Source: an uncultured Candidatus Saccharibacteria bacterium | GTDB lineage: Bacteria; Patescibacteriota; Minisyncoccia; Phycocordibacterales; GWA1-40-21 | Direction of reading: 5' to 3' | NCBI GenBank assembly: GCA_964605355.1 | Contig: CAZSCE010000002.1 | Span: 1-62,659 of the forward strand | DNA length: 62,659 nucleotides | In this document: positions 2,288-53,042 of the stretch, piece after piece | Layout: each line of letters opens with the position of its first letter | Numbering within the stretch: the first letter of the stretch is position 1 | Notes under the pieces: generated by a model | Told to the model about the DNA's origin: nothing | Database searches by the model: none | The model's input: the letters and a program-made list of their open reading frames with translations, nothing else | Translations under genes and position numbers: made by a program

Positions 2288-2323
2288 TTGACTTATTATT
2301 ATTTTAGTGTATTGTAAATATAG
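2288..2323 (+). promoter_or_regulatory. Sigma70-type promoter of GC-rich cassette A
   Basis: TTGACT (2288-2293), 16 nt, TATTGT (2310-2315), then 6 nt and AG (2322-2323) as likely start. Confidence 0.55.
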
Positions 2324-2364
2324 ACAGTGGGGCACGAAACAATGAAAGAAAAGGAGCGGGCGGT

Positions 2365-2613
2365 ATGAACAAAGAAGCGCGAAAGTGTTTACTTGCCAAG
2401 ATAACAAGGGACTGTTTGGTCTTGGGGCGGTCCCTTGGCTACAAGGGTAAGACTCTGGATGAGATGAAGGTGGAGAATGACCGGGCCATGGCCAAAACCA
2501 AGCGGCGGAAGAAGAACCGTAATCCCTGGCCCAAGTCCAGCTTCGTCAAGCTGACAAAACGGCAGATCGAACGGGCTGGGCTGAAGGCGGGGAAGGCCCT
2601 CCCGCGAATCTAG
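2365..2613 (+). CDS. Cassette A ORF1: 82-aa highly basic hypothetical protein
   Basis: AGGAG at 2352-2356, 8 nt before ATG. G/C-rich codons unlike flanking genes. KTKRRKKNRNPWPK basic tract. No family recognised. Confidence 0.6.
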   Translation: MNKEARKCLLAKITRDCLVLGRSLGYKGKTLDEMKVENDRAMAKTKRRKKNRNPWPKSSFVKLTKRQIERAGLKAGKALPRI

Positions 2614-2654
2614 GGTTAGTGTTCGTTAAACAATAAGTGAAAGGAGAAGTTCAT

Positions 2655-2792
2655 ATGGCAAAGGATCGTTGTAAGAGCGGAAAACAGATCAAGGACTCTG
2701 GGGGCAGTACTTATATCTGTCCCAAACTCGAGCGCTCAGTACCGGTTCGGAACGGGCGCTGCGAGGAAGGTTCCTGTTCCTGCAAACGCTGA
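2655..2792 (+). CDS. Cassette A ORF2: 45-aa Cys-rich mini-protein
   Basis: Not in the ORF track (below its length cutoff). GAAAGGAGAAGTTCAT-ATG gives an SD 8 nt upstream. Translation by hand: MAKDRCKSGKQIKDSGGSTYICPKLERSVPVRNGRCEEGSCSCKR. Stop TGA at 2790-2792, followed by the terminator. Confidence 0.5.
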   Translation: MAKDRCKSGKQIKDSGGSTYICPKLERSVPVRNGRCEEGSCSCKR

Positions 2793-2810
2793 TTCCTAAT
2801 CAGCAAATCT

Positions 2811-2842
2811 GGGCGGTCTCTATGGAGAGACCGCCTTTTTCT
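2811..2842 (+). terminator. Intrinsic terminator of cassette A
   Basis: GGCGGTCTC-TATG-GAGACCGCC perfect 9-bp stem followed by TTTTTCTTT. Confidence 0.85.
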
Positions 2843-2876
2843 TTACATTACTTGTTATAATTGGTAGATTAAATCA

Positions 2877-3694: not shown

Positions 3695-4333
3695 ATGTAT
3701 AAATTTAAATATCTAATTGGCATAGATGAAGTGGGGAGGGGGCCTTTGGCCGGGCCGGTGGCGGTGTGCGCGCTGTGTATTTGCCAAAATAAAAATTTAA
3801 ATAATAAAACCAAGTTCGCAGGTGCGAACTTCAGAAATTTTAAAGATTCAAAAAAGCTTTCACATAATCAGCGGGTGGAATGGCTAGAGAAAATAAATTT
3901 GGAAAAGAAAAAAGGAAATATTTTATATAAAGTAAGTTTTGAGTCTAATAAAATTATCGATAAGAAAGGCCTGACTTTTGCTATAAAAAATGCTTTAGGA
4001 AAGTCTCTCAATTCCTTAAACCTGTCTGCGCAGGCAGGAATTAATTCTAAAGAATGTCTAGTACTTTTAGATGGGGGATTGAGGGCACCAGCAGAATATA
4101 CAAATCAAAAAACTATAACAAAAGGGGATGAAAAGGAATTGGCTATTGCGCTGGCCTCTATTGTGGCCAAGGTGACCAGGGATGACTTGATGGTAAAGCT
4201 AGCCCTAAAATACCCAGGCTATGGCCTGGAAAAGCATAAAGGTTATGGCACCAGGGATCACTATAAGGCTATAAAAAGTCAGGGTATTTCGGCTATTCAT
4301 AGAAAGAGTTTTTTAAAAGGCCATATAAAGTAA
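3695..4333 (+). CDS. rnhB: Ribonuclease HII
   Basis: IGIDEVGRGPLAGPV, DSKKLS, ASIVAKVTRD and GYG motifs. Confidence 0.9.
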   Translation: MYKFKYLIGIDEVGRGPLAGPVAVCALCICQNKNLNNKTKFAGANFRNFKDSKKLSHNQRVEWLEKINLEKKKGNILYKVSFESNKIIDKKGLTFAIKNALGKSLNSLNLSAQAGINSKECLVLLDGGLRAPAEYTNQKTITKGDEKELAIALASIVAKVTRDDLMVKLALKYPGYGLEKHKGYGTRDHYKAIKSQGISAIHRKSFLKGHIK

Positions 4334-4342
4334 ATTAACTCC

Positions 4343-4379
4343 TTGACAAGAGTATGTAATGGTGATATACTTGTTATAG
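4343..4379 (+). promoter_or_regulatory. Sigma70-type promoter of GC-rich cassette B
   Basis: TTGACA (4343-4348), 17 nt, TATACT (4366-4371), 6 nt, AG (4378-4379). Confidence 0.6.
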
Positions 4380-4451
4380 CTAGATAAGTCAAGATTTCCA
4401 GGCGGACGCCCGGACATCTGTTCAAATTAACGTTCAAGTGGAGGATGTAAG

Positions 4452-4949
4452 GTGCATAATCATTATGCTGGGGTGTTCGTGTTTGACCCGCGGGATGGGT
4501 ATGTGTTGGTTGTCTCAGATTCCAAACATGAAAAGGAGCTGAAGATGGCGGGCGGAACATCTTTTGAGGGTGAGGAACCCGAAGATACTGCCACACGCGA
4601 GGCGACGGAGGAGTTGCGGACCAAGATACTTGAAAGTATCTTGGTGCACACAGAGTCCGTGCCCAACAGAGATGGGAGTACACATATGAGGTACTTCTTT
4701 CTCGCCACCAAGATTTCCAGTGCTCTTGAAAAAGGGGCCACCTGGGAAGTGGAAGAGAAGGATCCAACTGGGCGCGTGGTTGAAAAACTGATTGCCCAAT
4801 GGGTCCCGATCCGGGTCCTAGCGAGCCGGTTGTTCTTCAAACAGCGCCCGGCTTTTGGTGCTGTTCTGGCCGAGTTGGCTAAAAATGAGCAGTTCTTTAA
4901 CAAGTATGAAGATTTGCTCAGTGCGTTTCCCGCACCAGAAGTTGTCTGA
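4452..4949 (+). CDS. Cassette B: stand-alone Nudix-family hydrolase-like protein
   Basis: GTG start with GGAGG 7 nt upstream. Near-canonical Nudix box GTSFEGEEPEDTATREATEELR (Gx5Ex7REAxEE). G/C-rich codon usage. Confidence 0.7.
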   Translation: MHNHYAGVFVFDPRDGYVLVVSDSKHEKELKMAGGTSFEGEEPEDTATREATEELRTKILESILVHTESVPNRDGSTHMRYFFLATKISSALEKGATWEVEEKDPTGRVVEKLIAQWVPIRVLASRLFFKQRPAFGAVLAELAKNEQFFNKYEDLLSAFPAPEVV

Positions 4950-4975
4950 GAGGACTGAGAGTTCGAAGTTTTTTT

Positions 4976-5008
4976 GGGACCGCCATACACCACTGGCGGT
5001 CTTTTCTA
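4976..5008 (+). terminator. Intrinsic terminator of cassette B
   Basis: GGACCGCCA-loop-TGGCGGTC followed by TTTTCT. Confidence 0.8.
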
Positions 5009-5044
5009 TTGCATTTTTTTATTAAATAGGTTAGTATAGCCCCC

Positions 5045-5341: not shown

Positions 5342-6253
5342 ATGGCCAATAGACACATTGCAAGATCAATAGTTCTTCAAACACTTTTCGAACTTGATTT
5401 TCGGGATTATTCTAAATTAGAGAATCCTGAGGAAATTTTAGTGCGGAACGCTGCTGAATTTGCTAATGATGTGGTTGACCTCTTCTTTGTTAGAACTTTG
5501 CTGACCGGTGTGATGGGCAAAAAGAATGAAATTGATTTAGTTATTCAAAAAGCTGCTCCGGATTGGCCGTTAGATAAAATCTCTACTATTGATAGAAATA
5601 TTTTACGCATTGGGCTTTATGAGCTTCTCTTTGCTGATTCCAAAGAAGTGCCCGCCAAGGTGGCTATTAATGAAGCCATAGAGCTTTCTAAAAGTTATGG
5701 TGGTGAGAAAAGCAGTAAATTTGTGAATGGAGTATTAGGCTCAGTTTATAAAGAACTTGGTGAGCCGGATAAAGATGCTGTTTCCAAAAAGAAAAATAAA
5801 ACTATTATGGATATTCCGTATGAGCAAATGCCTATTGAAAAGCTGGGTGGCGCGGTGGTGTATGCTTATGATAACGGTGATTATTATTTAGCCTTGGTTC
5901 ATGACGTGTTTGGCTATTGGACATTATCAAAGGGTGGTTTAGAGGGTACTGAAAAAGAGCAGGAGGGAACCAAAAGAGAAGTAAAAGAAGAGATCGGTTT
6001 GGATGTAGAAGTGCTGGATGAGATAGGACGTAATGAATATGTGGCTAACCATCCGGAAAAAGGTAAAATCCGCAAGCAGGTTATTTATTTCCTTGCCAAA
6101 GCCCCATATAAAGATTTAATTTTAGAAAAAGATAATGGCGGTTTGGATGAAGCACGCTGGTTTAAACTAACCGAGCTTGAAGATCTGAAAACCTATGGAG
6201 ATATCCTGCCTTTTATTACCAAGGCAATAAGCTTGATTTGTGAACAAAAATAG
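5342..6253 (+). CDS. nusB: NusB antitermination factor fused to a C-terminal Nudix hydrolase domain
   Basis: N-terminal about 140 aa is NusB-like (ARSIVLQTLFELDF, DRNILRIGLYELLF, AINEAIELSKSYGGEKSSKFVNGVLG). The C-terminal half carries a perfect Nudix box, GGLEGTEKEQEGTKREVKEEIGL. Confidence 0.8.
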   Translation: MANRHIARSIVLQTLFELDFRDYSKLENPEEILVRNAAEFANDVVDLFFVRTLLTGVMGKKNEIDLVIQKAAPDWPLDKISTIDRNILRIGLYELLFADSKEVPAKVAINEAIELSKSYGGEKSSKFVNGVLGSVYKELGEPDKDAVSKKKNKTIMDIPYEQMPIEKLGGAVVYAYDNGDYYLALVHDVFGYWTLSKGGLEGTEKEQEGTKREVKEEIGLDVEVLDEIGRNEYVANHPEKGKIRKQVIYFLAKAPYKDLILEKDNGGLDEARWFKLTELEDLKTYGDILPFITKAISLICEQK

Positions 6254-6267
6254 TTAATATAGACTAT

Positions 6268-6972
6268 ATGACAAAGAAAACAGGTCCAGATTTTAGTAAA
6301 TTTGAAGAGGCCTCTGGTATTACTTTTAAGAATAAAGAGCTACTTCGTCGGGCCTTTACGCACCGCTCATTTTTAAATGAAAACCGTGGAGCAGAGTCTT
6401 CACATAATGAACGCTTGGAATTTTTAGGTGATGCTGTCTTGGAGCTGACCGTGACAGAGTATTTATTTGAAAAATATCCAGATAGTACGGAGGGTGACCT
6501 CACTGCTTACCGTGCGGCTCTGGTAAACGCTATCACCTTGTCAGAAGTGGCCCAGAAAATAAATGTAAATGATTTCCTCCTGCTTTCTAAAGGTGAGTCA
6601 AAAGATACCGGCAAGGCGCGTCAATATATTTTAGCTAATACCATGGAGGCCATAATTGGCGCTATGTATTTGGACCAAGGTTATGACGGTGCAAAATATT
6701 TTATTTCTAAAAACTTATTTCATTTGATTGATAAAATTGTGGAGGATAAAAGCTGGATTGATGCCAAGAGTAAGTTTCAGGAAAAAGCCCAGGAAAAAGA
6801 AAGCACCACGCCGGTTTACAAGAGTTTGAAAGAAGAAGGCCCGGATCATGACAAACGCTTTACTATTGGTGTGTATTTAAATGATGAACTAATTACCGAG
6901 GGTGAGGGAATGTCCAAGCAGGAGGCCGAGCAAGTAGCCGCCCGCAAAGCCCTGGAAGTAAAGGGCTGGTAA
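6268..6972 (+). CDS. rnc: Ribonuclease III
   Basis: NERLEFLGDAVLEL signature plus a C-terminal dsRBD (SKQEAEQVAARKAL). Confidence 0.9.
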   Translation: MTKKTGPDFSKFEEASGITFKNKELLRRAFTHRSFLNENRGAESSHNERLEFLGDAVLELTVTEYLFEKYPDSTEGDLTAYRAALVNAITLSEVAQKINVNDFLLLSKGESKDTGKARQYILANTMEAIIGAMYLDQGYDGAKYFISKNLFHLIDKIVEDKSWIDAKSKFQEKAQEKESTTPVYKSLKEEGPDHDKRFTIGVYLNDELITEGEGMSKQEAEQVAARKALEVKGW

Positions 6973-7018
6973 TCTATTTCTCTTGGATTTTAAACAAAAT
7001 ATTTGGTAGAATAGGGCA

Positions 7019-9271
7019 ATGTTGAAAAGTATTGAATTATGCGGTTTTAAATCTTTTGCCAAAAAGGCACAGCTTAATTTTAATACACCCATTTCTTCTA
7101 TTGTGGGGCCAAACGGTTCTGGTAAGAGTAATGTGGCCGAGGCTTTCCGGTTTGTGCTAGGTGAACAAAGTATCAAGTCATTAAGAGGGAAAAGAGTGGA
7201 AGACCTCATCTTTAATGGTGGTAAAGATGCTCCCCGGGCTAACCGCGCCTCTGCTAAAGTGGTGTTTGATAATACCCGCCGGATTTTTAATATTGATTTT
7301 GATGAAGTCTCCCTGGAGAGAGTGATTCACCGTGATTCTGTGAGTGAATATTTTATAAATGGTTCACCGGTGCGTTTGAAAGATATTATAGAGCTTTTAG
7401 CCTCTGCCCATATTGGCGCTTCCGGTCACCATATTATTTCTCAAGGTGAAGCGGATAAAATTTTGAATGCCAATATCAAGGAACGCCGAGAGATGATTGA
7501 GGATGCCCTAGGCCTAAAAATTTATCATTATAAGAAAGAGGATAGCCAGAGAAAGTTAACCAAGACAGAGGAGAATATAAAACAAGTAGAGTCCCTACGC
7601 CGGGAGATTGCGCCGCATTTAAAATTTTTAAAGAAGCAAGTAGAAAAGATTGAGAAAACTATTGAGATGCGGGATCAGTTGAAGAACTTTTATTTGGAAT
7701 ATTTTAAGCGTGAGGATGAATATATAAAATCCGAGAAAGCAAAACTGGCTGAAGAAAAAAGAGTGCCTTTGGCCGAGCTTCACCGTTTAGAAAATGAATT
7801 AAGACAAGCCAAGGAAGTATTGCAACGCTCAGAAAGTAAGGATGTAAAAAGTGATGAGATCATGTCCCTGGAGGAAAGTATCCGGGAAACCCGCCTAGCT
7901 AAAGACCTGATGATGCGGGAAATAGGGCGCCTGGAGGGTGAAATCAGTTATTTGGATAGGCAGTTTAAAAAGCATTTACAGGCCGCTAGTTCTGCTGAGG
8001 CTAAAAAGGTGGATTTGAGCGCGGTAGAAGGCCTGATTCAGAGCGTTTCGGGTGAGATTGACGCTGGGGCCAATTCTAATGATTTGTCAGTTATCAAAGC
8101 TATTTTAAATAAAATAAAAGCTGTCTTAAAAGACTTTATTGATAAAAATAAAACTAGTCAGGATGAAACTACTATAAAAGATTTAGAAAAAGAACTGGAT
8201 GATTTGCGTCAGAAAAAGGTGGAGGCGGATGTAGAGTTTTCCTTATTAAAAGATAAAGAGGCTGATTTTACGGCTAAATATAACAAAGTAAAAGATGAAA
8301 TTGAAAAGGAAAAAGATTCTAACCGTGATGCCGAAAAGGCGGTGTTTAGAATTATGGCGGAGCAAAATGAAATAAATACTAAATTAGCCGGTTTACAAAA
8401 TAGGGAAGAGAGACTGATTTTAGATGAGAATAATTTTAAACAGGAGCTGACTGAGGCTGGGGTGTTGGTGGGCCTTGATGCCGTCCGTTATAAAGAAGTG
8501 GTGGTGGAAATGACGGATCAGGGCCGGGGTGAGCAGGAGGAGCGCCGTAAAAATATTGAGAAAGTTAAAATCAGAATTGAGGATGCTGGCATAGGTTCCT
8601 CTGATGAAGTGCTTAAAGAATACCGCGAAGCCAGTGAGAGGGATGCCTTTTTAGAAAAAGAATTAACTGATTTAGGTGCTTCCTCTGTGTCACTACAGGC
8701 TTTGATCAAGGAACTAAATGATAAACTGACCACGGAATTTAAAATTGGGGTAGAAAAAATAAATACCCAATTCCAGGAATTTTTTAGCAAAATGTTTGGC
8801 GGGGGGACGGCAAAATTATCTGTGATTCGGGAAATGAGAAAGAAAAAGAGTGATACTGATATGTCCATCCTCGATGAGGAAAATATGGATGTGGAACCAG
8901 AAACTGAAGAAGGTGAAGAGGGGATTGATATTGAGGTAAATTTACCAAAGAAGAAAATAAAGGGCTTGATGATGCTATCTGGTGGAGAGCGCGCTCTGAC
9001 TTCCATTGCCTTACTCTTTGCCATGTCACAGGTAAATCCACCGCCATTTATTATTCTAGATGAGACAGATGCCGCCTTGGATGAAGCCAACTCTAAAAAG
9101 TATGGTGATATGATTGCGGAACTCTCAAAATATTCTCAGCTGATATTAGTTACTCACAACAGAGAGACCATGTCCCGCGCTGGTATTATTTATGGTGTGA
9201 CCATGGGCTTTGATGGTGTGTCCAAACTCCTCTCCATTCAGTTTGAAGAAGCCGTCCAGGTAGCAAAATAA
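7019..9271 (+). CDS. smc: SMC-family chromosome partition ATPase, short form (750 aa)
   Basis: Walker A GPNGSGKSN, signature LSGGERALTSIALLFA, Walker B FIILDETDAALD. Long heptad-rich middle without a recognisable hinge. Confidence 0.8.
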   Translation: MLKSIELCGFKSFAKKAQLNFNTPISSIVGPNGSGKSNVAEAFRFVLGEQSIKSLRGKRVEDLIFNGGKDAPRANRASAKVVFDNTRRIFNIDFDEVSLERVIHRDSVSEYFINGSPVRLKDIIELLASAHIGASGHHIISQGEADKILNANIKERREMIEDALGLKIYHYKKEDSQRKLTKTEENIKQVESLRREIAPHLKFLKKQVEKIEKTIEMRDQLKNFYLEYFKREDEYIKSEKAKLAEEKRVPLAELHRLENELRQAKEVLQRSESKDVKSDEIMSLEESIRETRLAKDLMMREIGRLEGEISYLDRQFKKHLQAASSAEAKKVDLSAVEGLIQSVSGEIDAGANSNDLSVIKAILNKIKAVLKDFIDKNKTSQDETTIKDLEKELDDLRQKKVEADVEFSLLKDKEADFTAKYNKVKDEIEKEKDSNRDAEKAVFRIMAEQNEINTKLAGLQNREERLILDENNFKQELTEAGVLVGLDAVRYKEVVVEMTDQGRGEQEERRKNIEKVKIRIEDAGIGSSDEVLKEYREASERDAFLEKELTDLGASSVSLQALIKELNDKLTTEFKIGVEKINTQFQEFFSKMFGGGTAKLSVIREMRKKKSDTDMSILDEENMDVEPETEEGEEGIDIEVNLPKKKIKGLMMLSGGERALTSIALLFAMSQVNPPPFIILDETDAALDEANSKKYGDMIAELSKYSQLILVTHNRETMSRAGIIYGVTMGFDGVSKLLSIQFEEAVQVAK

Positions 9272-12284: not shown

Positions 12285-12380
12285 CAAAAGCCAGGTAATA
12301 TTGTAATTATTCGCGCTTCACCCTTCCTGAGTACAGGTGGGTCCTACGCGACGAAAAATTCCAATATTACCTGGCTTTTG
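12285..12380. repeat. 19-bp perfect inverted repeat enclosing a 58-nt GC-rich core
   Basis: CAAAAGCCAGGTAATATTG (12285-12303) is the exact reverse complement of 12362-12380. The core contains TCGCG/CGCGA and CACC/GGTG sub-helices. Confidence 0.7.
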
Positions 12381-14600: not shown

Positions 14601-14637
14601 TTGCTTTTTTATATAATGTGTGCTATAGTTGTATAAG
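14601..14637 (+). promoter_or_regulatory. Sigma70-type promoter of GC-rich cassette C
   Basis: TTGCTT (14601-14606), 17 nt, TATAGT (14624-14629), 6 nt, then AGGTCAGATCT starting at 14636. Confidence 0.6.
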
Positions 14638-14690
14638 GTCAGATCTTCACGTTGTTCAGTAGCCACGATAATGTGGCAGAGGAGAAGTAG

Positions 14691-15008
14691 ATGAATAAAT
14701 TCGTCAGAGGGGTGGACTATATCATTGATCACGCTGTCCGATGCATGCTTTTGATAGGGGTTATCAGCTTCACTGTGATGTTATGGTTTGGCGACAAACC
14801 ACAGGCATCGGTGGAGTCAGTTGCTGCATCAAGCGAGGTCTGCGAGGACGGGTTTTTGGATCAGGATACGGCGAACGAACCCCTTCCGGAGTCGGAGATG
14901 TTCGTTATCACAGGGACTGGGGAGGTGGCGGAAGTTTCATTGCCACAGCCCGACCCAAACCTCGAGGGTTTCGAGGATCCGGATACCGTAGCTTTTGAAA
15001 GCAGATAG
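14691..15008 (+). CDS. Cassette C: 105-aa membrane-anchored acidic hypothetical protein
   Basis: GGAG 6 nt upstream of ATG. One TM helix (CMLLIGVISFTVMLWF) followed by a D/E/P-rich tail. G/C-rich codons. Confidence 0.6.
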   Translation: MNKFVRGVDYIIDHAVRCMLLIGVISFTVMLWFGDKPQASVESVAASSEVCEDGFLDQDTANEPLPESEMFVITGTGEVAEVSLPQPDPNLEGFEDPDTVAFESR

Positions 15009-15108
15009 GGAGGAGGAGGCGATACAAGGCCATCATCCTAGACAAGATGCTCCTTGTCTCGGTGGTGGTGGCAGTGGTGGCCACTCTGTTGTGGTTCACC
15101 AGTTCATA

Positions 15109-15146
15109 AGGTCCCGGGTTGCAAGTTGCACCCCGGGCCTTTTTTA
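15109..15146 (+). terminator. Intrinsic terminator of cassette C
   Basis: GGTCCCGGG-loop-CCCGGGCC followed by TTTTTTATT. Confidence 0.8.
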
Positions 15147-15199: not shown

Positions 15200-16534
15200 A
15201 TGAACAAGAATTATTCAAGACAAGCGGGAACTCCTGCATTTCGTGGCGGTAATAGCGGTGGACCAAAGAAACCAGCCAGTAGTGGCTATCAGGGACATAA
15301 TCCAAGACCAATGTCTGGGGGTGGCTTTCGAGCACCTGTAAAAAGATCATTTAGTGGAGGTAGTTTCCGCGGGCCTGTTCGAAACAGTGGTAATCGAGGT
15401 AATGGCGGCGGCCGCGCTTTTGGTGCCCAAAATATTCACTTTTCAAAATTCATAAATAAAGCCGAGCCAGCATCTGAAGCTGTGGCCTATGTGCCGGAAA
15501 ATAAATTTGCTGATTTTATTATTGATTCCAGATTAAAGCAAAATATTATTACCAAAGGTTACGTTACACCTACATTAATTCAGGATAAGACTATTCCGCA
15601 AATTCTAGCCGGTAAGGACGTAGTGGGTATTGCCAATACTGGAACAGGGAAAACGGGTGCCTTTATAATTCCGCTTATTCAGAAGGTGATTTTAAATAAA
15701 TTTGAAAAGGTAATGGTGGTGGTTCCTACCAGAGAATTGGCAGTGCAGATAAATCAGGAGCTCCGCTCATTTGTTACAAATCTAGGTATTTTTTCTGCTT
15801 GTTGCGTAGGTGGAGCTTCTATTAGTGGTCAGATTGCGGAACTGCGCCGTCAGAATAATTTTATTATTGGTACACCGGGTAGATTAAAAGATTTGATAAA
15901 CAGAAGGTTTATTAATCCCGGCCAATTTAACACAATTGTTTTGGATGAAGCTGATAGAATGCTGGATATGGGATTTATTGCGGATATGAAATTTATTATG
16001 GCCAAGATGCCAACAAAGCGTCATACTTTATTCTTCTCCGCTACGATGTCAAAAGAGATAGAGGCGCTCATTAAAACTTTCTTACATGAACCAATTATTG
16101 TTTCAGTTAGAACTGGGGATACATCAAAAAATGTGGATCAGGATATTGTACGTGTTACGGGTGATAAAATGGTTACCTTGGAAAACTTATTAAAACAAAG
16201 TGAATTTTATAAAGTGCTTATTTTTGGACGCACAAAACATGGGGTAGAAAAACTATCTAAAAAACTGATTGAGAAAGGCTTTAAGGCTGATTCAATTCAT
16301 GGTAACAAGCCTCATTCCAAGCGCCAGCGTGCTCTAGGAGCTTTTAAGGATAACTCCGTGGCTATATTAGTGGCTACAGATGTGGCCGCTCGTGGTCTGG
16401 ATATCCCGGATGTTTCTCATGTTATAAACTATGATGTACCGGCTACCTATGATGATTATGTGCACCGTATTGGCAGAACTGGCCGTGGAAATAAAAAAGG
16501 TAAAGCGCTAACTTTTATAGAAGGACATAAATAA
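15200..16534 (+). CDS. DEAD-box ATP-dependent RNA helicase with N-terminal Gly/Arg-rich extension
   Basis: Q-motif region, AxTGTGKT (ANTGTGKTGAF), PTRELA, VLDEADRMLDMGF, SAT, ARGLD and HRIGRTGR motifs. Confidence 0.9.
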   Translation: MNKNYSRQAGTPAFRGGNSGGPKKPASSGYQGHNPRPMSGGGFRAPVKRSFSGGSFRGPVRNSGNRGNGGGRAFGAQNIHFSKFINKAEPASEAVAYVPENKFADFIIDSRLKQNIITKGYVTPTLIQDKTIPQILAGKDVVGIANTGTGKTGAFIIPLIQKVILNKFEKVMVVVPTRELAVQINQELRSFVTNLGIFSACCVGGASISGQIAELRRQNNFIIGTPGRLKDLINRRFINPGQFNTIVLDEADRMLDMGFIADMKFIMAKMPTKRHTLFFSATMSKEIEALIKTFLHEPIIVSVRTGDTSKNVDQDIVRVTGDKMVTLENLLKQSEFYKVLIFGRTKHGVEKLSKKLIEKGFKADSIHGNKPHSKRQRALGAFKDNSVAILVATDVAARGLDIPDVSHVINYDVPATYDDYVHRIGRTGRGNKKGKALTFIEGHK

Positions 16535-16563
16535 TTTTCAGACTATTATTATCAAATCTTTTG

Positions 16564-16580
16564 TGATATATTCACTTTAG
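16564..16580 (+). promoter_or_regulatory. Extended -10 promoter of cassette D ORF1
   Basis: TGa-TATATT (16564-16572), 6 nt, AG (16579-16580). The -35 is weak. Confidence 0.4.
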
Positions 16581-16608
16581 ATCAGAAACTTAAAACAGGG
16601 GAGGGATT

Positions 16609-16836
16609 ATGGGTGGCGTATTGGCGGATACACATGGTAAATTGGCGCAACTTTTTACTGGGACCCTTATCTCAAAAGGGGTATCAGAAGAAGGGGCGCA
16701 GAAACTGCTCAACAATCATGTAGTGGTAGAGCGGCTTATTTCGGGGCTCCTAACTGGTGACGTGGAGCTGGATCAGACAAGAATGCTTGTTATTCACGAG
16801 ACGGGGAGGATAGATTTGTCCCCACCCCGGACATGA
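16609..16836 (+). CDS. Cassette D ORF1: 75-aa hypothetical protein
   Basis: GGGGAGGG SD 3-4 nt upstream of ATG, G/C-rich codons, ends at the shared terminator. No family recognised. Confidence 0.55.
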   Translation: MGGVLADTHGKLAQLFTGTLISKGVSEEGAQKLLNNHVVVERLISGLLTGDVELDQTRMLVIHETGRIDLSPPRT

Positions 16837-16848
16837 ACCCTGTTTTTA

Positions 16849-16893
16849 AAAAAAAGAACCCCCCGGACGACTGATATCGTCCGGGGGTTTGCT
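16849..16893. terminator. Bidirectional intrinsic terminator shared by the two convergent cassette D genes
   Basis: AACCCCCCGGACGA-CTGATA-TCGTCCGGGGGTT, flanked by an A-run upstream and a T-rich tract downstream. Confidence 0.85.
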
Positions 16894-16900
16894 TGTTCTG

Positions 16901-17374
16901 TTATTTCCTCTCGTAGATTTGAAAATCCGCGACCCTTATCCCATGGTCTTGTCGCAGTCTTCTCCATAATGATTCAAAGCCTTCTCCAGTCAGACAGATG
17001 TTCTGGAAGTCTCGGCCCTGGGGATCCGTTACAGTGAAGGTTGTTCCAATTGACCACGTCCAAAAAAGTCTTACCGCTTCAGGAATGCTGTCAATTCTCT
17101 TTGGGAGGCAGACAAACTTTCTCCCATTAAGCTTTGACGTGCGAATATGGAGGCTATTCCGGAAGGGGTGATCGTTCCACCTCCCAGTGTCCTGCAGCTC
17201 CATTTCGTAGTGCAGGCCTATTGGTGCAGCTTGCTCCGGACCACTCTCGTAGAAGTCCGGATCAAGAAGGTGTTCGCTTGGCCGGTGAGATTCGTGAACC
17301 GCGCACCAGAACACATTTCTCATTATTGGTGCCTCTTTTCTCACCCGGACAGTTCTTGCTCGAAAATAGATCAT
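16901..17374 (-). CDS. Cassette D ORF2: 157-aa hypothetical protein
   Basis: AAGGAG 7 nt upstream of ATG (minus strand). G/C-rich, Trp/Arg/His-rich sequence. No family recognised. Confidence 0.6.
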   Translation of the reverse strand: MIYFRARTVRVRKEAPIMRNVFWCAVHESHRPSEHLLDPDFYESGPEQAAPIGLHYEMELQDTGRWNDHPFRNSLHIRTSKLNGRKFVCLPKRIDSIPEAVRLFWTWSIGTTFTVTDPQGRDFQNICLTGEGFESLWRRLRQDHGIRVADFQIYERK

Positions 17375-17424
17375 CTAAGTCTCCTTATGTTAAGAGGGCT
17401 AAAGTTATTCCAGCCCAAACTATT

Positions 17425-17461
17425 CTGTAGAAACTATAACAGAATAATGAGGAAAAAGCAA
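17425..17461 (-). promoter_or_regulatory. Sigma70-type promoter of cassette D ORF2
   Basis: On the minus strand: TTGCTT (17461-17456), 17 nt, TATAGT (17438-17433), 6 nt, AG. Same hexamers as the cassette C promoter. Abuts the cysS stop codon. Confidence 0.6.
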
Positions 17462-22381: not shown

Positions 22382-22421
22382 AAAAAGAGCCGCGATTACC
22401 CATGAGAACTGGGGTCGCGGC
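22381..22421 (-). terminator. Intrinsic terminator of the candidate ncRNA (minus strand)
   Basis: On the minus strand: GCCGCGA-loop-UCGCGGC followed by UCUUUUUU. The U tail abuts the stop codon of the convergent 21935-22381 gene. Confidence 0.8.
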
Positions 22422-22578: not shown

Positions 22579-22640
22579 TCATTATCTACATTACTTTATT
22601 TATATTATTTTGCAAGTATTTATTATGATATAATATTCAG

Positions 22641-34477: not shown

Positions 34478-34655
34478 GCAGAAATCAAATCGCCCTCGCA
34501 AAAAATCAAATTTTGATTTCTTGCGAGGGCGAACGAGTTCGCGGTACCACCTCACTTTTAACTCATTTATGGGGTTCTACTAACTTTCGCTTTCTTCCCC
34601 AAGCTCCACCGCGTCATACGGCTTCCTTGCTTATGGTGCTATTTTACAACATTCA
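34478..34655 (-). promoter_or_regulatory. T-box leader (tRNA-sensing transcription attenuator) upstream of DUF1653-aspS
   Basis: On the minus strand: the exact T-box core GGUGGUACCGCG (reverse complement of 34540-34553 region), an AGCGA (AGVGA-like) element upstream, and an alternative terminator CGCCCUCGCAA-loop-UUGCGAGGGCG followed by a U-rich tract (34478-34531). Confidence 0.8.
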
Positions 34656-34670: not shown

Positions 34671-34707
34671 TTGACAAAACCTATTTTTTAGACTATTGTT
34701 TACACAG
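34671..34707 (+). promoter_or_regulatory. Sigma70-type promoter of GC-rich cassette F
   Basis: TTGACA (34671-34676), 17 nt, TATTGT (34694-34699), 6 nt, then AGGTCAGATCT starting at 34706. Confidence 0.65.
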
Positions 34708-34744
34708 GTCAGATCTATAAACAAGCTAAAATAAGGAGTGGGAC

Positions 34745-35335
34745 ATGGGAATCAATCGTAAGTTTTTTCAGGAAAAGATGCTGGAAAAGAATGTTATCTT
34801 TATCAGTGGAGAAATTGTTGGTGATATGGTGGCGTATGTCAGAGATAGTATTGGTGAACTGATCTGTCGAGGTTCACCTGACGTGTATCTAGTAATCTGC
34901 AGCAGTGGTGGGAGCGTTCGTGCTGGTTTAGATATATATGACATTCTCAATCTGTATTCTGGAAAAAAGACTGCGTTAGTTTCAAATTATGCCAAGTCAA
35001 TGGCCGCAGTAATTTTACAGGTTTGTGAACACCGCATGGCCACCCTGCACACCAGGATTATGATTCATCATATTGGCTCTGATGATGTGAGTCTGGACAC
35101 CTTGCGTGATAAGGACAGACTTACAAAGTTCATTGACGGTATGGAGCGCAACCAGGAACACCTGTATCGGATTCTGTCAGAGAGAACAGGTAAGGATGGG
35201 GCCACTATTCGTGACGAGTGTGCCAAGGAAAGAGAGATGAGCGCAGATGAGGCAAAATCGTTTGGTTTGATTGACGAAATCTGGACCAAACACTTTCCTT
35301 GGGAGGTAGCTGCGACCTTAGATGCGAAGAAATGA
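34745..35335 (+). CDS. Cassette F: ClpP-like (S14 family) serine peptidase
   Basis: AAGGAG 6 nt upstream. VIFISGEI, CSSGGSVRAGLDIYD, AKSMAAV (Ser) and RIMIHH (His) follow the ClpP fold pattern. G/C-rich codons. Confidence 0.7.
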   Translation: MGINRKFFQEKMLEKNVIFISGEIVGDMVAYVRDSIGELICRGSPDVYLVICSSGGSVRAGLDIYDILNLYSGKKTALVSNYAKSMAAVILQVCEHRMATLHTRIMIHHIGSDDVSLDTLRDKDRLTKFIDGMERNQEHLYRILSERTGKDGATIRDECAKEREMSADEAKSFGLIDEIWTKHFPWEVAATLDAKK

Positions 35336-35349
35336 GGAGGTGAACACAA

Positions 35350-35385
35350 AAGGGCCGGTGGAGAAATCCACCGGCCCGTTTTTTA
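35350..35385. terminator. Intrinsic terminator of cassette F (probably also serves the convergent trpS)
   Basis: GGGCCGGTGGA-GAAA-TCCACCGGCCC followed by GTTTTTT. A-rich on the other side. Confidence 0.85.
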
Positions 35386-40491: not shown

Positions 40492-40528
40492 TTGACTTTT
40501 TAGTAATATTTGCGTATGATTTTAAAAG
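40492..40528 (+). promoter_or_regulatory. Sigma70-type promoter of GC-rich cassette G
   Basis: TTGACT (40492-40497), 17 nt, TATGAT (40515-40520), 6 nt, AG (40527-40528). Confidence 0.6.
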
Positions 40529-40597
40529 ATTTGTTAACCGTCCTTAGTTGAACTAAGCTCAATAGAGCATTTGGTGCGGTGTTGAAAGGAATAAAGT

Positions 40598-40981
40598 ATG
40601 AGCAAGAAAGTGGAAATGAAGCCTTTGGTAAAGTTTATTGGTGTATCTACAAGCACGCCTGCTTTGGATCACTATCAACTGACCATAGCAGCTGAGAAGG
40701 TGTTTCGTGAAGAGGGTTTTCTCGACTCTGAACACACTGATTGCGGTATTCTAACGGCTTACTCACTCGGGTTCTTAGTTTGTAGGAATCTGCATGTAGA
40801 CATCAAACTCTACAAGCCTGAGGTTGATATGGGTCGGCGGCTCAAGTTTCTCGCAAAGGTGGTTACTGAGGTACGGAAGGTACTTGATGAAATGTATCCT
40901 TCTGTCAATGGCGTTCATGTACAGGGGTCAATTACAACAGCGGCGCAGGAGCTGAATACTTACCCCAAAAAAGGAGAATGA
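40598..40981 (+). CDS. Cassette G ORF1: 127-aa hypothetical protein
   Basis: AAAGGA 7 nt upstream of ATG. G/C-richer codons than flanks. No family recognised. Confidence 0.6.
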   Translation: MSKKVEMKPLVKFIGVSTSTPALDHYQLTIAAEKVFREEGFLDSEHTDCGILTAYSLGFLVCRNLHVDIKLYKPEVDMGRRLKFLAKVVTEVRKVLDEMYPSVNGVHVQGSITTAAQELNTYPKKGE

Positions 40982-40982
40982 A

Positions 40983-41369
40983 ATGATTAAGGTGCAAATC
41001 ATGCCGGGTATATTTTTTTCTCTCGAGGAAAAAACACCTGGGAGAATATGTCTTATCCGGTGGTGGTATGTAAAGTGTTACTTTGGCTGTGGAGCCAGCA
41101 TCACTGGGGAGTTTCTCTCTTCCTCAACGGATGTTATTGGTGACATTCACCAAACTCTGAAGACACGAAGTTGGAAGGAAAGGATATCGGATCGTGTTTG
41201 GGGTTGTCCCGAATGTGCCAAGCAGAATCGTTTCTGCAAGAAGATGACCCCAAAGGTCAGGAAACAAATGGAAGGAAGGCAAAAAAACGGATGGACAGCG
41301 ATGGTCTACGGCTCAGGACAATTGTTGCCTGCGGCTACTGTTGGTTTGCCTAGTCGGAGGGTAAAGTAG
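40983..41369 (+). CDS. Cassette G ORF2: 128-aa Cys/Trp-rich protein with CPEC zinc-ribbon-like motif
   Basis: AAAGGAG lies inside the end of ORF1, and the ATG is 1 nt after the ORF1 stop (coupled). CYFGCG and WGCPECAKQNRFC motifs with a basic tail. Confidence 0.6.
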   Translation: MIKVQIMPGIFFSLEEKTPGRICLIRWWYVKCYFGCGASITGEFLSSSTDVIGDIHQTLKTRSWKERISDRVWGCPECAKQNRFCKKMTPKVRKQMEGRQKNGWTAMVYGSGQLLPAATVGLPSRRVK

Positions 41370-41391
41370 ACACAACCACAGCTCAGTTAGC

Positions 41392-41430
41392 AAAAAGTCC
41401 GGACATTCGCAGATGTTCCGGACTTTTCTT
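41392..41430. terminator. Intrinsic terminator of cassette G (also faces the convergent rpsI)
   Basis: AAAAGTCCGGACAT-loop-ATGTTCCGGACTTTT (one bulge), then CTT. Confidence 0.8.
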
Positions 41431-46829: not shown

Positions 46830-46831
46830 AT

Positions 46832-50692: not shown

Positions 50693-51605
50693 CTTTTTTT
50701 ATATTATTGTGGCTATTTTTTTCGGCTAATTGTTGAATTCTCACTAACTCTTCTGGACCAACACATTCCTTACATAGGTCATACACCTCCTTTACTACAG
50801 ACTGAGCTTTTTTATCATCAAAACCATAGCTCTTTAGCAGACTATAATCACCAAGCTGTTTTGAAAGGACAATCCTATTTGCTAAAAACATTTTCTTTTC
50901 CGTTAGACTGATAGTGGTCAAAACAGTGATAGGCACCATATTTAATTTCTCAATCAAATGATGTAAATTATTTTCTGAAGGATAATTCCAGCCAATCATA
51001 TTTAAATGAGCACACTCACCGTATTGGATAGCGGTAGAGGAAAAGTTTGTATTCGTTATTAATATTCCTTTGGTCATCTTCCTTTCCTTGCCACCATATT
51101 TATAGATGCCGTTTTGTAAATCCTCAAATCTGGCCTTGATATATAAAGCCACCTTTAGATCAGAATGAGTACCAAAATCTGTATGAAATTTTGCCTCTAT
51201 CATAATCAATTCCTTATCATTATAGGCCACCACATCTATTTCATGTGGTACACAGGTACCTATAGCAATCTGATCTGTAACCGCTTCATAACCCTGAGCT
51301 TTAAATATCTCTGCCACATAATCCTCAAAAGGAAAACCAGACGGACCAAGCTCGGCAATGGCTCTCTTGATAGAATAGCGAAGCGCTACTGGGCGCTGAC
51401 CTTTTCTCAGTAAACCAAAAGCCTGTCTATATATTTCTTTGGTGGTGTGACCGTCTTTTAAATCAGCTTCAACTTTCTTAACTATGCTATCAGCCAAGGT
51501 TTGATCAGTGCCAATTTTTCTAAGAGATGACAAAAGCTTTTCCCGGTTAAAAGGCTCTCTCGTTCCATCAGCTTTTATAATATAAATTCCTGGCTCCGGT
51601 GACAT
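50676..51605 (-). CDS. ATP-cone domain fused to an Mrr-like restriction-endonuclease domain
   Basis: ATP-cone pattern IYIIKADGTREPFNREKLLSSLRK...TTKEIYRQAF. Nuclease core FEDYVAEIFKAQGYEA...EIDVVAY...MIEAKF. I use the ATG at 51605 (MSPEPG). The 3' end overlaps the next gene by 17 nt. Confidence 0.6.
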   Translation of the reverse strand: MSPEPGIYIIKADGTREPFNREKLLSSLRKIGTDQTLADSIVKKVEADLKDGHTTKEIYRQAFGLLRKGQRPVALRYSIKRAIAELGPSGFPFEDYVAEIFKAQGYEAVTDQIAIGTCVPHEIDVVAYNDKELIMIEAKFHTDFGTHSDLKVALYIKARFEDLQNGIYKYGGKERKMTKGILITNTNFSSTAIQYGECAHLNMIGWNYPSENNLHHLIEKLNMVPITVLTTISLTEKKMFLANRIVLSKQLGDYSLLKSYGFDDKKAQSVVKEVYDLCKECVGPEELVRIQQLAEKNSHNNIKKDEPVL

Positions 51606-51622
51606 AATAAACATTATATCAT

Positions 51623-52741
51623 TTACAAAATAATTCCACCACCCAGACACACATTTCTATCATAAATTACAATGGATTGACCGGCGGCTGGTGAACTTGG
51701 AGCATCTTTAAATATAATTTTACAATTACCGCCCTTTAACAATTCAATTTTGCAGGAATCAAGAGCGCCTCGGTAACGAATTCTAGCTTGATAATTTTTA
51801 GAAATATCTGGCGCCTGGTTTGATATCCAGTTCACATTACTTAATTCAAACTCTTTTTTGTTCAAACCTTCACTTATACTCAATTTATCAGAAATTGTAA
51901 TAGTATTTTTTTTAATATCCTTACTTATCACAAATCGCCTATTATTTTCTGGGGAATTTTTTATTATAACAAAACCATGACGCTGGCCAATGGTGTAAAG
52001 CTCGGCCCCTTCATGTGTACCTATAATCTCTCCTTTTTCATTTAAAACTTTTCCTGGTTTTGTTTTAATAAAGTTTTTCAAAAAGTCACCCATTTCCACC
52101 TTTCCAATAAAACACAAACCTTGACTATCTTTTTTTGTGGCCGTTTCTAAATCAAACTTTTTAGCTAATTTTCTGACTTCTGTTTTCTCTAAATCCCCCA
52201 CTGGAAATAAAGTTTTGGTTAATTGCTTTTGAGTTAATGTCCACAAAAAATAACTTTGATCTTTATTCTTATCTATTCCAGCCAAAAGGCAGAATTCGGA
52301 ATTTGGAATTTGGAATTTAGTTTTTTTTCTATATTCAATATTCAACATTCTAGATTCTACTTTAGCATAATGACCGGTAGCTACATAATCTGCCCCTTTT
52401 TTCATAGCCCAATCAAAGAAACCGCCAAACTTTACGTATTTATTACACATCACATCCGGATTTGGCGTCCTACCCGCCTTATATTCATTAATCATATAAT
52501 CCACCACCTCCTTTTTGTACTGCTTTTCTAGATCAAGGGTGTAAAAAGGTATATTTAATTTGGCACAAACCCGCATAGCATCCAGCCGGTCTTCCTTCCA
52601 GGTACAGCCGCCAGTCAGTTCCATATCAGGCTGCCAAACCTTGATAAATACCCCATACACATCAAGGCCGGCCTTTTTTAACAAGGCAGCACTAACTGAG
52701 GAATCCACACCGCCTGATAACCCCACAAATACCTTTTTCAT
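51623..52741 (-). CDS. mnmA: tRNA 2-thiouridine(34) synthase
   Basis: MKKVFVGLSGGVDSSV PP-loop start. The track's 40-codon N-terminal extension (to 52861) was rejected. Confidence 0.9.
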   Translation of the reverse strand: MKKVFVGLSGGVDSSVSAALLKKAGLDVYGVFIKVWQPDMELTGGCTWKEDRLDAMRVCAKLNIPFYTLDLEKQYKKEVVDYMINEYKAGRTPNPDVMCNKYVKFGGFFDWAMKKGADYVATGHYAKVESRMLNIEYRKKTKFQIPNSEFCLLAGIDKNKDQSYFLWTLTQKQLTKTLFPVGDLEKTEVRKLAKKFDLETATKKDSQGLCFIGKVEMGDFLKNFIKTKPGKVLNEKGEIIGTHEGAELYTIGQRHGFVIIKNSPENNRRFVISKDIKKNTITISDKLSISEGLNKKEFELSNVNWISNQAPDISKNYQARIRYRGALDSCKIELLKGGNCKIIFKDAPSSPAAGQSIVIYDRNVCLGGGIIL

Positions 52742-52777
52742 TGAAATTTTATACCATATATGGTAATATAATACCAG
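52741..52777 (+). promoter_or_regulatory. Extended -10 promoter of GC-rich cassette H, overlapping the mnmA start codon
   Basis: TTGAAA (52741-52746), 17 nt, TGg-TAATAT (52761-52769), 6 nt, AG (52776-52777). Confidence 0.55.
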
Positions 52778-52802
52778 AAAGAACAAACAAAGGAGGTGTT
52801 TT

Positions 52803-53012
52803 GTGGCCAAAATTTCTGCAAAGAATGGCCGAACGTATCTCCTCTGCCGTAAATGTCGCAAAAGGAGGTCCTTACCAAAAGTTGTGACCTCACCACCTGG
52901 CTTTTATCCGGTGAAGGAAGTGGAAGAGCAAGCAAGAAAGATTAGATGGATTGCTTCCCTTTTACAACCTGATCTGGATATCTGCGGTAGGTGCAGACGA
53001 ACAGAGGAGTAA
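52803..53012 (+). CDS. Cassette H: 69-aa basic zinc-ribbon-like mini-protein
   Basis: AGGAGG 6 nt upstream of GTG. Two CxxC pairs (CRKC, CGRC). G/C-rich codons. Confidence 0.6.
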   Translation: MAKISAKNGRTYLLCRKCRKRRSLPKVVTSPPGFYPVKEVEEQARKIRWIASLLQPDLDICGRCRRTEE

Positions 53013-53042
53013 GAGCGAGTCCCGTGACTCGCTCTTTTCTTT
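53011..53042 (+). terminator. Intrinsic terminator of cassette H
   Basis: AGAGCGAGTC-CCGT-GACTCGCTCT followed by TTTCTTTT. Abuts the mltG stop codon. Confidence 0.85.

Follow-up and report, generated by a model that had tools for sequence, protein, structure and literature searches.

Small promoter-Shine-Dalgarno-terminator units at recurrent gaps between the core genes of a Paceibacteria chromosome

GC-enriched gene units in an AT-rich backbone

The stretch of DNA analysed here (contig CAZSCE010000002.1, hereafter the window) is a complete metagenome contig of 62.7 kb with 38.0% G+C, from the small, AT-rich chromosome of an uncultured member of the Paceibacteria within the candidate phyla radiation. 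Its nearest genomes in a species-representative collection are likewise uncultured Paceibacteria/Parcubacteria, with core proteins 60-92% identical. Eight patches, A to H, stand out from this backbone, wedged between trmD, rnhB, alr, a DEAD-box helicase gene, cysS, trpS, grpE, rpsI, mnmA and yceG-like flanks. An earlier description, made from the letters alone (the original prediction), had presented them as dispersed, GC-rich, self-contained units resembling the morons of phages. Seven of the eight, all but E, consist of a sigma-70 promoter, a leader of about 30-90 nt, a canonical Shine-Dalgarno (SD) sequence, one or two open reading frames (ORFs) and an intrinsic terminator (Table 1); the signals lie where they had been predicted, the promoter match of D1 being weak. 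Terminators of the GC-stem/T-run type are found downstream of every unit, those of D and F being bidirectional, and the best sigma-70 matches and strongest terminators of the whole window fall largely on the units. Units F, G and H are encoded on the plus strand amid minus-strand genes, as had been noted, and D2 turns out to lie on the minus strand.

Table 1. Units, patch E and cassette ORFs of the window, with the signals assigned to them (GC3, G+C at third codon positions, with z against the backbone where noted; SD, energy of the anti-SD duplex)
Feature	Position	Strand	GC3	SD (kcal/mol)	Description
Unit A	2288-2836	+			Promoter TTGACT-16-TATTGT 2288-2315; leader ~45 nt; terminator 2811-2836
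ORF A1	2365-2613	+	0.73 (z 8.5)	-8.3	82 aa, basic
ORF A2	2656-2793	+	0.48 (z 3.1)	-8.7	46 aa, Cys-rich
Unit B	4343-5003	+			Promoter TTGACA-17-TATACT 4343-4371; leader ~80 nt; terminator 4976-5003
ORF B	4452-4949	+	0.57	-9.3	GTG start; Nudix; 165 aa
Unit C	14601-15139	+			Promoter TTGCTT-17-TATAGT 14601-14629; leader; terminator 15110-15139
ORF C	14691-15008	+	0.59 (z 5.5)	-9.1	105 aa, one hydrophobic segment, acidic tail
Unit D1	16522-16887	+			Weak promoter match 16522-16549; terminator 16860-16887, shared, bidirectional
ORF D1	16609-16836	+	0.49	-11.7	75 aa
Unit D2	16860-17461	-			Promoter TTGCTT-17-TATAGT 17461-17433; terminator 16887-16860, shared with D1
ORF D2	17374-16901	-	0.52	-9.3	157 aa
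Patch E	22382-22600	+			Directly 3' of the stop of an Ada-Zn-like gene (21935-22381); opens with a hairpin; GGAGG, then 20-aa ORF 22452-22514
Unit F	34671-35377	+			Promoter TTGACA-17-TATTGT 34671-34699; leader; bidirectional terminator 35352-35377, common with convergent trpS
ORF F	34745-35335	+	0.45		ClpP-like S14 peptidase, 196 aa
Unit G	40492-41423	+			Promoter TTGACT-17-TATGAT 40492-40520; leader ~70 nt; terminator 41397-41423; antisense between grpE and rpsI
ORF G1	40598-40981	+	0.45 (z 2.6)	-5.6	First of bicistron, 127 aa
ORF G2	40983-41369	+	0.49 (z 3.3)	-8.7	Second of bicistron, 128 aa, CxxC
Unit H	52741-53036	+			Promoter-like TTGAAA-17-TAATAT 52741-52769; terminator 53011-53036; divergent from mnmA
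ORF H	52803-53012	+	0.43	-12.9	GTG start; 69 aa; CxxC...CxxC Zn ribbon

All eight patches are GC-enriched, as predicted, but unequally: the departure from the backbone is pronounced in A-D, intermediate in E-G and slight or marginal in H. Their G+C amounts to 0.499 (A), 0.494 (B), 0.504 (C), 0.464 (D), 0.489 (E), 0.435 (F), 0.442 (G) and 0.430 (H), while the window outside them has 0.372. No backbone window of equal length reaches A, B, C or D; E, F and G fall within the top 0.6%, 1.3% and 0.5%, respectively, and H merely within the top 8.8%. The hand counts that had accompanied the prediction, for positions 4561-4620 and 3901-3960, are exact (0.600 and 0.200 G+C). GC3 separates cassette from backbone better than bulk G+C does, the ten cassette ORFs (Table 1) lying at z = 2.1-8.5 relative to 61 backbone genes with a GC3 of 0.331±0.048 (range 0.24-0.43). 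G+C is elevated at all three codon positions and in the untranslated parts, and the shift spans each unit from transcription start to terminator. It is visible in the proteins too, which are enriched in Gly, Ala, Arg and Pro (GARP, 0.255 versus 0.207 in the backbone) and depleted in Phe, Tyr, Met, Ile, Asn and Lys (FYMINK, 0.248 versus 0.332).

Structured RNA genes were considered as the cause of these GC islands and rejected, with no transfer RNA (tRNA) or transfer-messenger RNA (tmRNA) gene found in the patches by ARAGORN and no Rfam match inside them even at E <= 10. Patch E, singled out in the prediction as lacking a promoter, indeed has none, nor any convincing ORF; it folds better than shuffled versions of itself on both strands (z -3.3 and -3.5), and is the sole patch that remains a possible candidate for an RNA element.

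Two details concern single units. In unit C, the GC-rich 3' part holds a possible hydrophobic mini-ORF of 20 aa (15047-15109) downstream of a GGAGGAGGAGG run, and the deposited annotation of its main ORF apparently gives 98 aa where the SD-supported start gives 105. The true start of mnmA, on the minus strand next to unit H, lies at about 52741.

Two modes of translation start

When the energy of the anti-SD duplex is computed over the 17 nt upstream of each start, all ten cassette ORFs prove to carry an SD, of -5.6 to -12.9 kcal/mol, whereas the energy is weaker than about -3 in nearly all of some 60 backbone genes, the main exception being dnaJ (-9.3). In many backbone genes that stand first in their operon, the ATG follows an extended -10 box at a distance of 6 nt, as in TGATATAAT-N6-ATG at 22641, and this spacing would be the mark of leaderless mRNAs. 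Since the backbone is SD-free and, by this sign, leaderless, the SD discriminates between units and backbone more sharply than composition.

The contrast recurs in 171 related Paceibacteria loci (2.87 Mb, 3,011 ORFs; the window left out). They were surveyed with a neutral first-ATG rule, which replaced a choice of the best SD among in-frame starts that had inflated SD calls in long ORFs. A strong SD at -20 to -4 precedes 3.0% of the ORFs of backbone composition, the rate seen in shifted control windows (2.4-4.9%), and thus SD use is undetectable in the core. The corresponding figure for GC3-high ORFs is 41.8%, against only 1.5-5% in shifted windows. The association between SD and GC3 excess (odds ratio 12.7, P 6.5e-31) is graded, with SD-led fractions of 3% up to an excess of +0.05 and then 10%, 21%, 37%, 34% and 54% as the excess grows, while GC3-poor outliers remain at the background level of 3-4%. 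Promoter positions follow the same division. Of 2,079 backbone ORFs, 12.7% have a -10 hexamer whose end is precisely 6 nt from the start codon, some tenfold above a background of ~1.3%; among 81 cassette-type ORFs it is never found at 6 nt, and only once anywhere within 0-11 nt. TTGAC(A/T) occurs 20-140 nt upstream of 52 out of 80 cassette-type ORFs (65%), versus 12.6% of backbone ORFs. The window itself is unusually rich in GC3-high SD-led ORFs, with 11.2 per 100 kb compared to an average of 2.65, about a fourfold difference. Neither the SD/leaderless contrast nor its recurrence across the clade had been seen in the original prediction.

The restriction of SDs to GC-rich atypical genes could have either of two causes: the donors of these genes use SDs, or structured GC-rich mRNAs are barred from an AU-dependent, SD-free route of initiation. 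The conservation of SDs across orthologues (see below) argues that the ribosome of this SD-free core can still use them. The discrepancy in the annotated length of ORF C may reflect start-site models that mis-call the SD-led class in a leaderless genome.

Cargo, mobility genes and junctions

The Nudix and ClpP-like cargo named in the prediction was recovered by Pfam (B, NUDIX, E 1.7e-10, 41.5 bits versus a cut-off of 21.1; F, CLP_protease, E 6.7e-27, 95 bits versus 20.2), and motifs bear out the Zn ribbon of H and the Cys-rich nature of A2 and G2, all three being mini-proteins. Compared with the consensus GX5EX7REUXEEXGU, the Nudix box of B is near-canonical (G-TSFEG-E-EPEDTAT-RE-A-T-EE-L), its last Gly replaced by Arg. 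F aligns over its full length with ClpP of the PDB and keeps the SM (Ser) and MIH (His) catalytic motifs, the third triad position being apparently Glu as read from the alignment; it reaches at most 85 bits against the cut-offs of 120-475 of every NCBIfam model, those of canonical ClpP and phage head-maturation proteases alike. Judged by these matches, F is a divergent S14 peptidase.

A1 and A2 have no match in Pfam, PHROGs, NCBIfam or PADLOC, and sequence and profile searches of these collections and the PDB assign no function to A1, D1, D2 or G1. D2 is a member of an uncharacterised family that comprises 112 further clusters at 50% identity and has conserved His, Glu and Cys residues; neither D2 nor its family alignment matches Pfam or the PDB, and a word search returned no close homologue. 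Members of this family are mostly of AT-type amino-acid composition, D2 being a GC-shifted outlier at about the 93rd percentile. AlphaFold predictions for D2 and G1 from single sequences (pLDDT 36.5 and 57.9) were too poor for a structure search. Nothing points to a common pathway or function among the cargo, and the units share no repeats; the suggestion of a distributed accessory system is thus not borne out.

Scans of thirty ORFs (the ten of the cassettes and the twenty less obvious ones of the backbone) with Pfam and PHROGs detect no integrase, transposase, phage structural gene or repressor, the only phage-family hits being those of B and F to generic Nudix and ClpP folds. By translation and synteny, all other backbone genes look like housekeeping genes, in agreement with the prediction. 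No repeat family links the units and no flanking repeats were found; k-mers enriched upstream of the cassette ORFs reduce to the -35 element. A GGTCAGATCT motif after the -10 box of C and F was set aside, its frequency being at chance level. The suggestion of an undescribed mode of gene acquisition finds no counterpart here, as no sign of a new mechanism emerged.

Could the units be true phage morons, or what is left of prophages or satellites after the loss of their phage genes? The promoter-gene-terminator layout and atypical G+C are the defining look of a moron, F matches PHROGs head-maturation protease families (best E 1.7e-23) and B matches phage Nudix families. We nevertheless consider a phage origin very unlikely. 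Besides the missing phage genes, scans of IMG/VR with F, D2 and the Nudix alignment returned nothing closely related, the best match to F being 26% identical; cellular ClpP gives F equally high scores, and in many Patescibacteria the homologues of F are surrounded by housekeeping genes; and the eight units are scattered over 50 kb, each in its own gap between core genes. What stands of the moron comparison is the layout, the distinct composition and the presence or absence of units at given sites, whereas nothing ties them to phages.

Short foreign-looking inserts in a metagenome contig are also a classic sign of chimerism, in this case of GC-richer reads joined into an AT-rich contig during assembly or binning. 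The probability of such an artefact appears negligible. Contigs obtained from different samples with different assemblers (JGI 3300045131, Logan SRR12261226) run through alr-C-helicase-D1 and grpE-G-rpsI at 99.8-100% identity and reproduce both junctions of C (L255; loci of relatives are labelled L), both of G (L253, L254) and the left one of D, so that the objection fails for the junctions checked. Moreover, the ends of the units coincide with functional signals, and the same architecture is found in dozens of independent genomes.

Empty gaps and exchanged cargo

In related genomes the same gaps are often empty or differently filled. Gap C, between alr and the DEAD-box helicase gene, measures only ~30-110 bp in eight relatives, which makes C a lineage-specific insertion. 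The distance from the helicase gene to cysS (gap D) can be as short as ~20 bp or as long as 3 kb, with differing cargo: the gap is empty in four relatives, contains ~0.5 kb of assorted small ORFs in six, a DAHP-synthase-like SD-led gene plus others in L165, and three SD-led ORFs in a row, with GC3 of 0.54, 0.70 and 0.77, in L167 (11170-12929). Both F and G are absent from the closely related L085 (RpoA 92%, DnaK 90% and AspS 90% identical), where the gaps amount to 149 bp and, between rpsI and grpE, 61 bp. The gap of H, between yceG and mnmA, is empty in L258, L259 and L269/270. Upstream of trmD, at the site of A, L251 carries other SD-led GC-rich units, encoding a 139-aa membrane protein and a 52-aa Zn ribbon. 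The gap of E is empty in one relative (L172), is occupied by an SD-led MutT-like unit in another (L178) and in two more (L170, L171) contains a stretch of similar length and little similarity. Thus, the sites of A, C, D, F, G and H vary or stand empty, as the prediction would have it, whereas B and F have also been held for long at the same positions.

Exchange reaches into the neighbouring core genes. The cysS gene beside gap D exists in two allele classes, ~47% and ~73% identical to that of the window, next to corA neighbours that are 68-83% identical, and the occurrence of two classes in otherwise close genomes indicates that segments of this region are exchanged. Other aminoacyl-tRNA synthetases likewise fall into two deep classes in otherwise close genomes, GltX being 50-57% or 82% and AspS 34% or 85-90% identical to the window. 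The pattern in CysS, GltX and AspS is suggestive of foreign versions having taken the place of core genes without a change of locus.

Long-term residents and allele replacement

The units cannot all be recent acquisitions, since at least seven other species have the Nudix gene in this very place and seven other genomes have the ClpP-like gene adjoining trpS. The Nudix unit lies between rnhB and rpmF (RNase HII, Nudix, L32) in L001/L081, L002, L248, the near-identical strains L249 and L250, L251, L252 and one further contig. In every case the rnhB stop is followed immediately by a TTGACA promoter, then by a leader of ~80-100 nt and the SD-led gene, and a terminator closes the unit; in the seven orthologues read at the DNA level, an SD is present throughout and GC3 exceeds that of the backbone by +0.11 to +0.30. 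The more distant L003 has nothing in this gap, and an alignment-based genome scan for the family finds one locus only.

Fourfold-degenerate sites in conserved codons of the Nudix orthologues match at a mean of ~0.29 (range 0.17-0.47), the random level in most pairs (0.25-0.30 expected), whereas for the flanking trmD and rnhB most values are 0.35-0.50, with ~0.27 expected. The Nudix cassette is therefore more deeply diverged than its flanks, and with synonymous sites at the random level its GC excess is unlikely to be a leftover of an ancestral import; it must be either actively maintained or repeatedly re-introduced. A short motif, roughly (A)GATAAGTTCGG, is common to the 5' ends of the Nudix leaders of seven species (window 4374-4395; L249 7905-7925); the remainder has diverged beyond alignment, and RNAalifold finds no consensus pairs and hence no consensus structure in these leaders. 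L081, located on the same contig as L001, has two tandem SD-led GC-rich Nudix-type units after rnhB (5929-7204), each with its own TTGACA promoter, the second being 26% identical to B.

The ClpP-like gene is convergent with trpS, as in the window, in five genomes (L244, L084, L091, L096, L113) and lies upstream of it in two (L108, L119). All these trpS-adjacent genes are SD-led, with a GC3 excess of +0.09 to +0.39. In pairs with TrpRS proteins 82-86% identical, the ClpP-like proteins share 64%, 37%, 39%, 36% and 43% identity, while some more distant pairs reach 48-49%, and the overall correlation between the two proteins is low (Spearman rho 0.22). Being out of step with TrpRS, the ClpP-like identities do not reflect clock-like vertical descent, and we read them as allele replacement at a fixed locus. 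More generally, cassette proteins diverge far more than the flanking core proteins, F being the sole case with enough resolution to be seen out of step.

Two further sites show the architecture in AT-rich dress. The D2 orthologue of L168 (44% identity) occupies the same gap with its own promoter, an AAGGAGG SD and a terminator, and has AT-rich codons. At the site of H, L257 carries an SD-led, AT-rich gene for a 58-aa CxxC...CxxC Zn ribbon in the same orientation; its likeness to H is one of position and motif, homology being undetected by tblastn. What stays constant is thus the layout, while the extent of GC enrichment differs from case to case.

Origin of the units

Collectively, the architecture of the units, the two modes of translation start, their clade-wide pattern and the gain, loss and replacement of cargo at the same gaps lead us to a reading that we hold to be probable on balance: the patches are small islets of the accessory genome, moron-like in architecture and chromosomal in setting, which are gained, lost and replaced at recurrent gaps between core operons. 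The units would be drawn from a horizontally exchanged gene pool that is GC-richer and SD-using. They would enter by DNA uptake, followed by illegitimate recombination or by homologous recombination via the conserved flanking genes, a route that fits the absence of integrases and repeats. Of the inserts that arrive, only those equipped with promoter, SD and terminator, on arrival or later, would persist. We propose that a leadered mRNA is barred from the leaderless route of the host, so that an insert would need both promoter and SD to be expressed, and that read-through into essential neighbours, which are antisense in the case of D2, F, G and H, would be harmful and make a terminator necessary. 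The Nudix gene after RNase HII, the ClpP-like gene at trpS, D2 and the Zn ribbon at mnmA may then represent long-lived 'replacement' sites at which divergent alleles succeed one another. Transfer of single genes and of islands, mostly within the phylum and with competence among the routes, is described for Patescibacteria in PMC12455944.

Several observations weigh against this scenario. The named homologues of the Nudix and ClpP-like proteins are all patescibacterial, and neither a donor nor a GC-rich member of the Paceibacteria that has them natively was found. The GC3 of the Nudix gene moves with that of the backbone and is consistently above it in each of the seven species, a behaviour that fits a gene-specific force such as selection or biased gene conversion at least as well as repeated re-import. 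Distances between the trmD/rnhB cores of the Nudix-bearing genomes are star-like, and the incongruence of the cargo accordingly rests on F and not on the Nudix gene. The D2 gene of L168, the ClpP-like gene of L246 and the Zn ribbon of L257 are SD-led and not GC-rich, and thus SD and GC enrichment are separable. Finally, the recombination mechanism is deduced solely from the absence of mobility genes and repeats.

Some of these points would sit comfortably with a native regulatory class, that is, a few leadered, SD-dependent genes under separate control (for instance through the accessibility of the anti-SD) amid translation that is otherwise SD-free, being leaderless or starting at AU-rich sites, with GC-rich mRNA kept by selection on stability, structure or slow decoding. 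In line with this, an SD stands at the right spacing in seven of seven Nudix genes, most ClpP-like genes, both D2 genes and both Zn-ribbon genes, even though the leaders have diverged beyond alignment; the Nudix GC3 follows each backbone with an offset of constant sign despite nearly random synonymous sites in most pairs; the composition shift covers the transcribed unit from start to terminator, untranslated parts included; and SDs are confined to GC-rich outliers, not GC-poor ones. Yet close relatives have nothing or unrelated cargo in these gaps, which marks most units as dispensable and speaks against a conserved regulon. Furthermore, the Nudix offset varies from +0.11 to +0.30 at the same backbone (L248 versus L249) and that of the ClpP-like genes from -0.09 to +0.39, ClpP-like identities do not track those of TrpRS, and the cargo has no common function. 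We therefore regard such a class as rather unlikely, and the two-tier translation that it entails, in which an SD-free core is interspersed with separately controlled, leadered, GC-rich SD units preserved by selection and not as relics of transfer, as a doubtful proposition.

The enrichment might alternatively be a by-product of frequent homologous recombination through GC-biased gene conversion, the cassettes being recombination hot spots of the pangenome. The turnover and incongruence of alleles at F, a synonymous divergence of B deeper than that of its flanks, the rise of G+C at all three codon positions and in untranslated parts, and the two cysS allele classes adjoining gap D are all compatible with this view. 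However, to our knowledge the effects reported for biased gene conversion in bacteria are much smaller and less sharp than a GC3 excess of +0.2 to +0.4 that is limited to 0.3-0.9 kb and breaks off abruptly at promoter and terminator. AT-rich orthologous units exist as well, and the process leaves the SD and leader architecture unexplained, so that it could only add to the GC excess. As the explanation of the units it seems to us decidedly improbable, and islets exchanged at recurrent gaps remain our preferred interpretation.

Relation to known systems

The morons of lambdoid phages (HK97/HK022) are promoter-gene-terminator units inserted between phage genes. Like them, the islets are autonomous, differ in composition from their flanks, lie between conserved genes, are present or absent at the same position and are often insulated by antisense orientation; presence and absence at one position holds for C, D, F, G and H, B being kept within its sub-clade and absent from L003. 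Unlike morons, they are located in a bacterial chromosome with housekeeping flanks, have no viral relatives of their cargo that we could find, are in several cases conserved across species, and differ from the genes of their host in translation start (SD versus leaderless).

Streamlined aquatic bacteria possess flexible or 'replacement' genomic islets, which are exchanged via flanking homology and have no need of mobility genes. The resemblance lies in core-flanked spots that hold unrelated cargo or very divergent alleles of atypical composition. The present units are, however, far smaller (0.3-0.9 kb, 1-2 genes), GC-richer and not poorer, and complete from promoter through SD to terminator. 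With integron cassettes they share the format of small one-gene units adding accessory functions, but there are no attC-like repeats, no integrase among the ORFs scanned and no array, and each unit has its own promoter. Classical genomic islands differ still more: the window has no tRNA genes, no flanking repeats and no integrase in the ORFs scanned, and units of 0.3-0.9 kb contrast with islands of at least 10 kb.

As regards translation, Flavobacterium johnsoniae reportedly makes little use of SDs genome-wide, with a few SD-led genes that are specially regulated. The genome studied here resembles this Bacteroidota type in being nearly SD-free (SDs at background frequency) with a small set of genes bearing strong canonical SDs, and differs from it in that these are variable accessory genes, not ribosomal or regulatory core genes. 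The leaderless genomes of group C defined with GeneMarkS-2 have a Pribnow box 6-8 nt before the start of operon-first genes, together with an 'atypical' minority of deviant G+C that is read as horizontally transferred and is usually GC-poorer than the genome (PMC6028130). Our backbone, with its -10 peak at 6 nt, and the deviant-G+C minority conform to this description; the other genes of group C are normally SD-led, whereas here SDs are concentrated in the GC-rich atypical genes. The accessible text of PMC12455944 concerns individually transferred genes in the same phylum and proposes competence, and describes no unit architecture, SD/leaderless contrast or recurrent gap hot spots.

Genes of atypical composition, leaderless genomes, morons, flexible islets and gene transfer in Patescibacteria are thus each known already. 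Our literature search found no description of an SD-free, largely leaderless core combined with accessory promoter-leader-SD-terminator units, of a graded link between SD and GC3 excess across a bacterial class, or of fixed micro-loci with divergent allele replacement. If the islet reading is right, accessory genes still come and go in streamlined symbionts that lack visible mobile elements, in the form of single small units and at recurrent gaps between essential operons. A leader with a canonical SD in an SD-free genome, usually accompanied by raised GC3, would then provide a sequence marker for the flexible genes of Paceibacteria, a set that is probably the seat of host-interaction and defence functions and whose cargo is mostly uncharacterised. 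Gene finders with a single start-site model are likely to mis-call one of the two classes, as unit C (98 versus 105 aa) illustrates. Should the two-tier reading prove true instead, the SD would be a switchable signal in a lineage of the candidate phyla radiation, comparable to bS21-dependent control in Flavobacteria, and the finding would gain weight if the SD-led set proves to be a regulated translation class.

Other features of the window

Backbone genes were identified from their translations, from Pfam searches of the 20 less obvious ORFs and from synteny, using the Pfam labels of orthologous neighbourhoods. They include trmD, rnhB, rpmF, a nusB-like gene, rnc, smc, rnr, rpsP, alr, the DEAD-box helicase gene, cysS, corA, rplI, rpmA, gltX, cell-wall synthesis genes, scpAB, aspS, trpS, dnaKJ-grpE, a ribosomal protein/rpoA block, mnmA and yceG, among others. 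ARAGORN finds no tRNA or tmRNA gene in the window and Rfam no match at gathering thresholds; a 16S rRNA gene is absent from the window and from every related locus retrieved. Cumulative GC skew is maximal at ~23.7-24.1 kb, where gene orientation turns from mostly plus to almost all minus, a coincidence that would fit a replication terminus or origin, or just a purine bias of the coding strand.

About 0.6 kb upstream of unit A, on the minus strand (669-1693), a gene for a sigma factor of the extracytoplasmic function (ECF) type (Sigma70_r2/r4) is followed by an overlapping gene for a 163-aa protein, which from its position could be guessed to be the anti-sigma factor. A large hairpin (12285-12380; 29-nt arms, 93% complementary, 38-nt loop) separates a KH-domain gene from a DsbD-like gene. 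Upstream of the DUF1653-aspS operon, a weak match to the T-box leader (34490-34636, minus strand; 28 bits, E 0.024, below gathering) lies beside a terminator-like hairpin with a 20-bp stem (34532-34490), and a divergent T-box may control this aminoacyl-tRNA synthetase operon.

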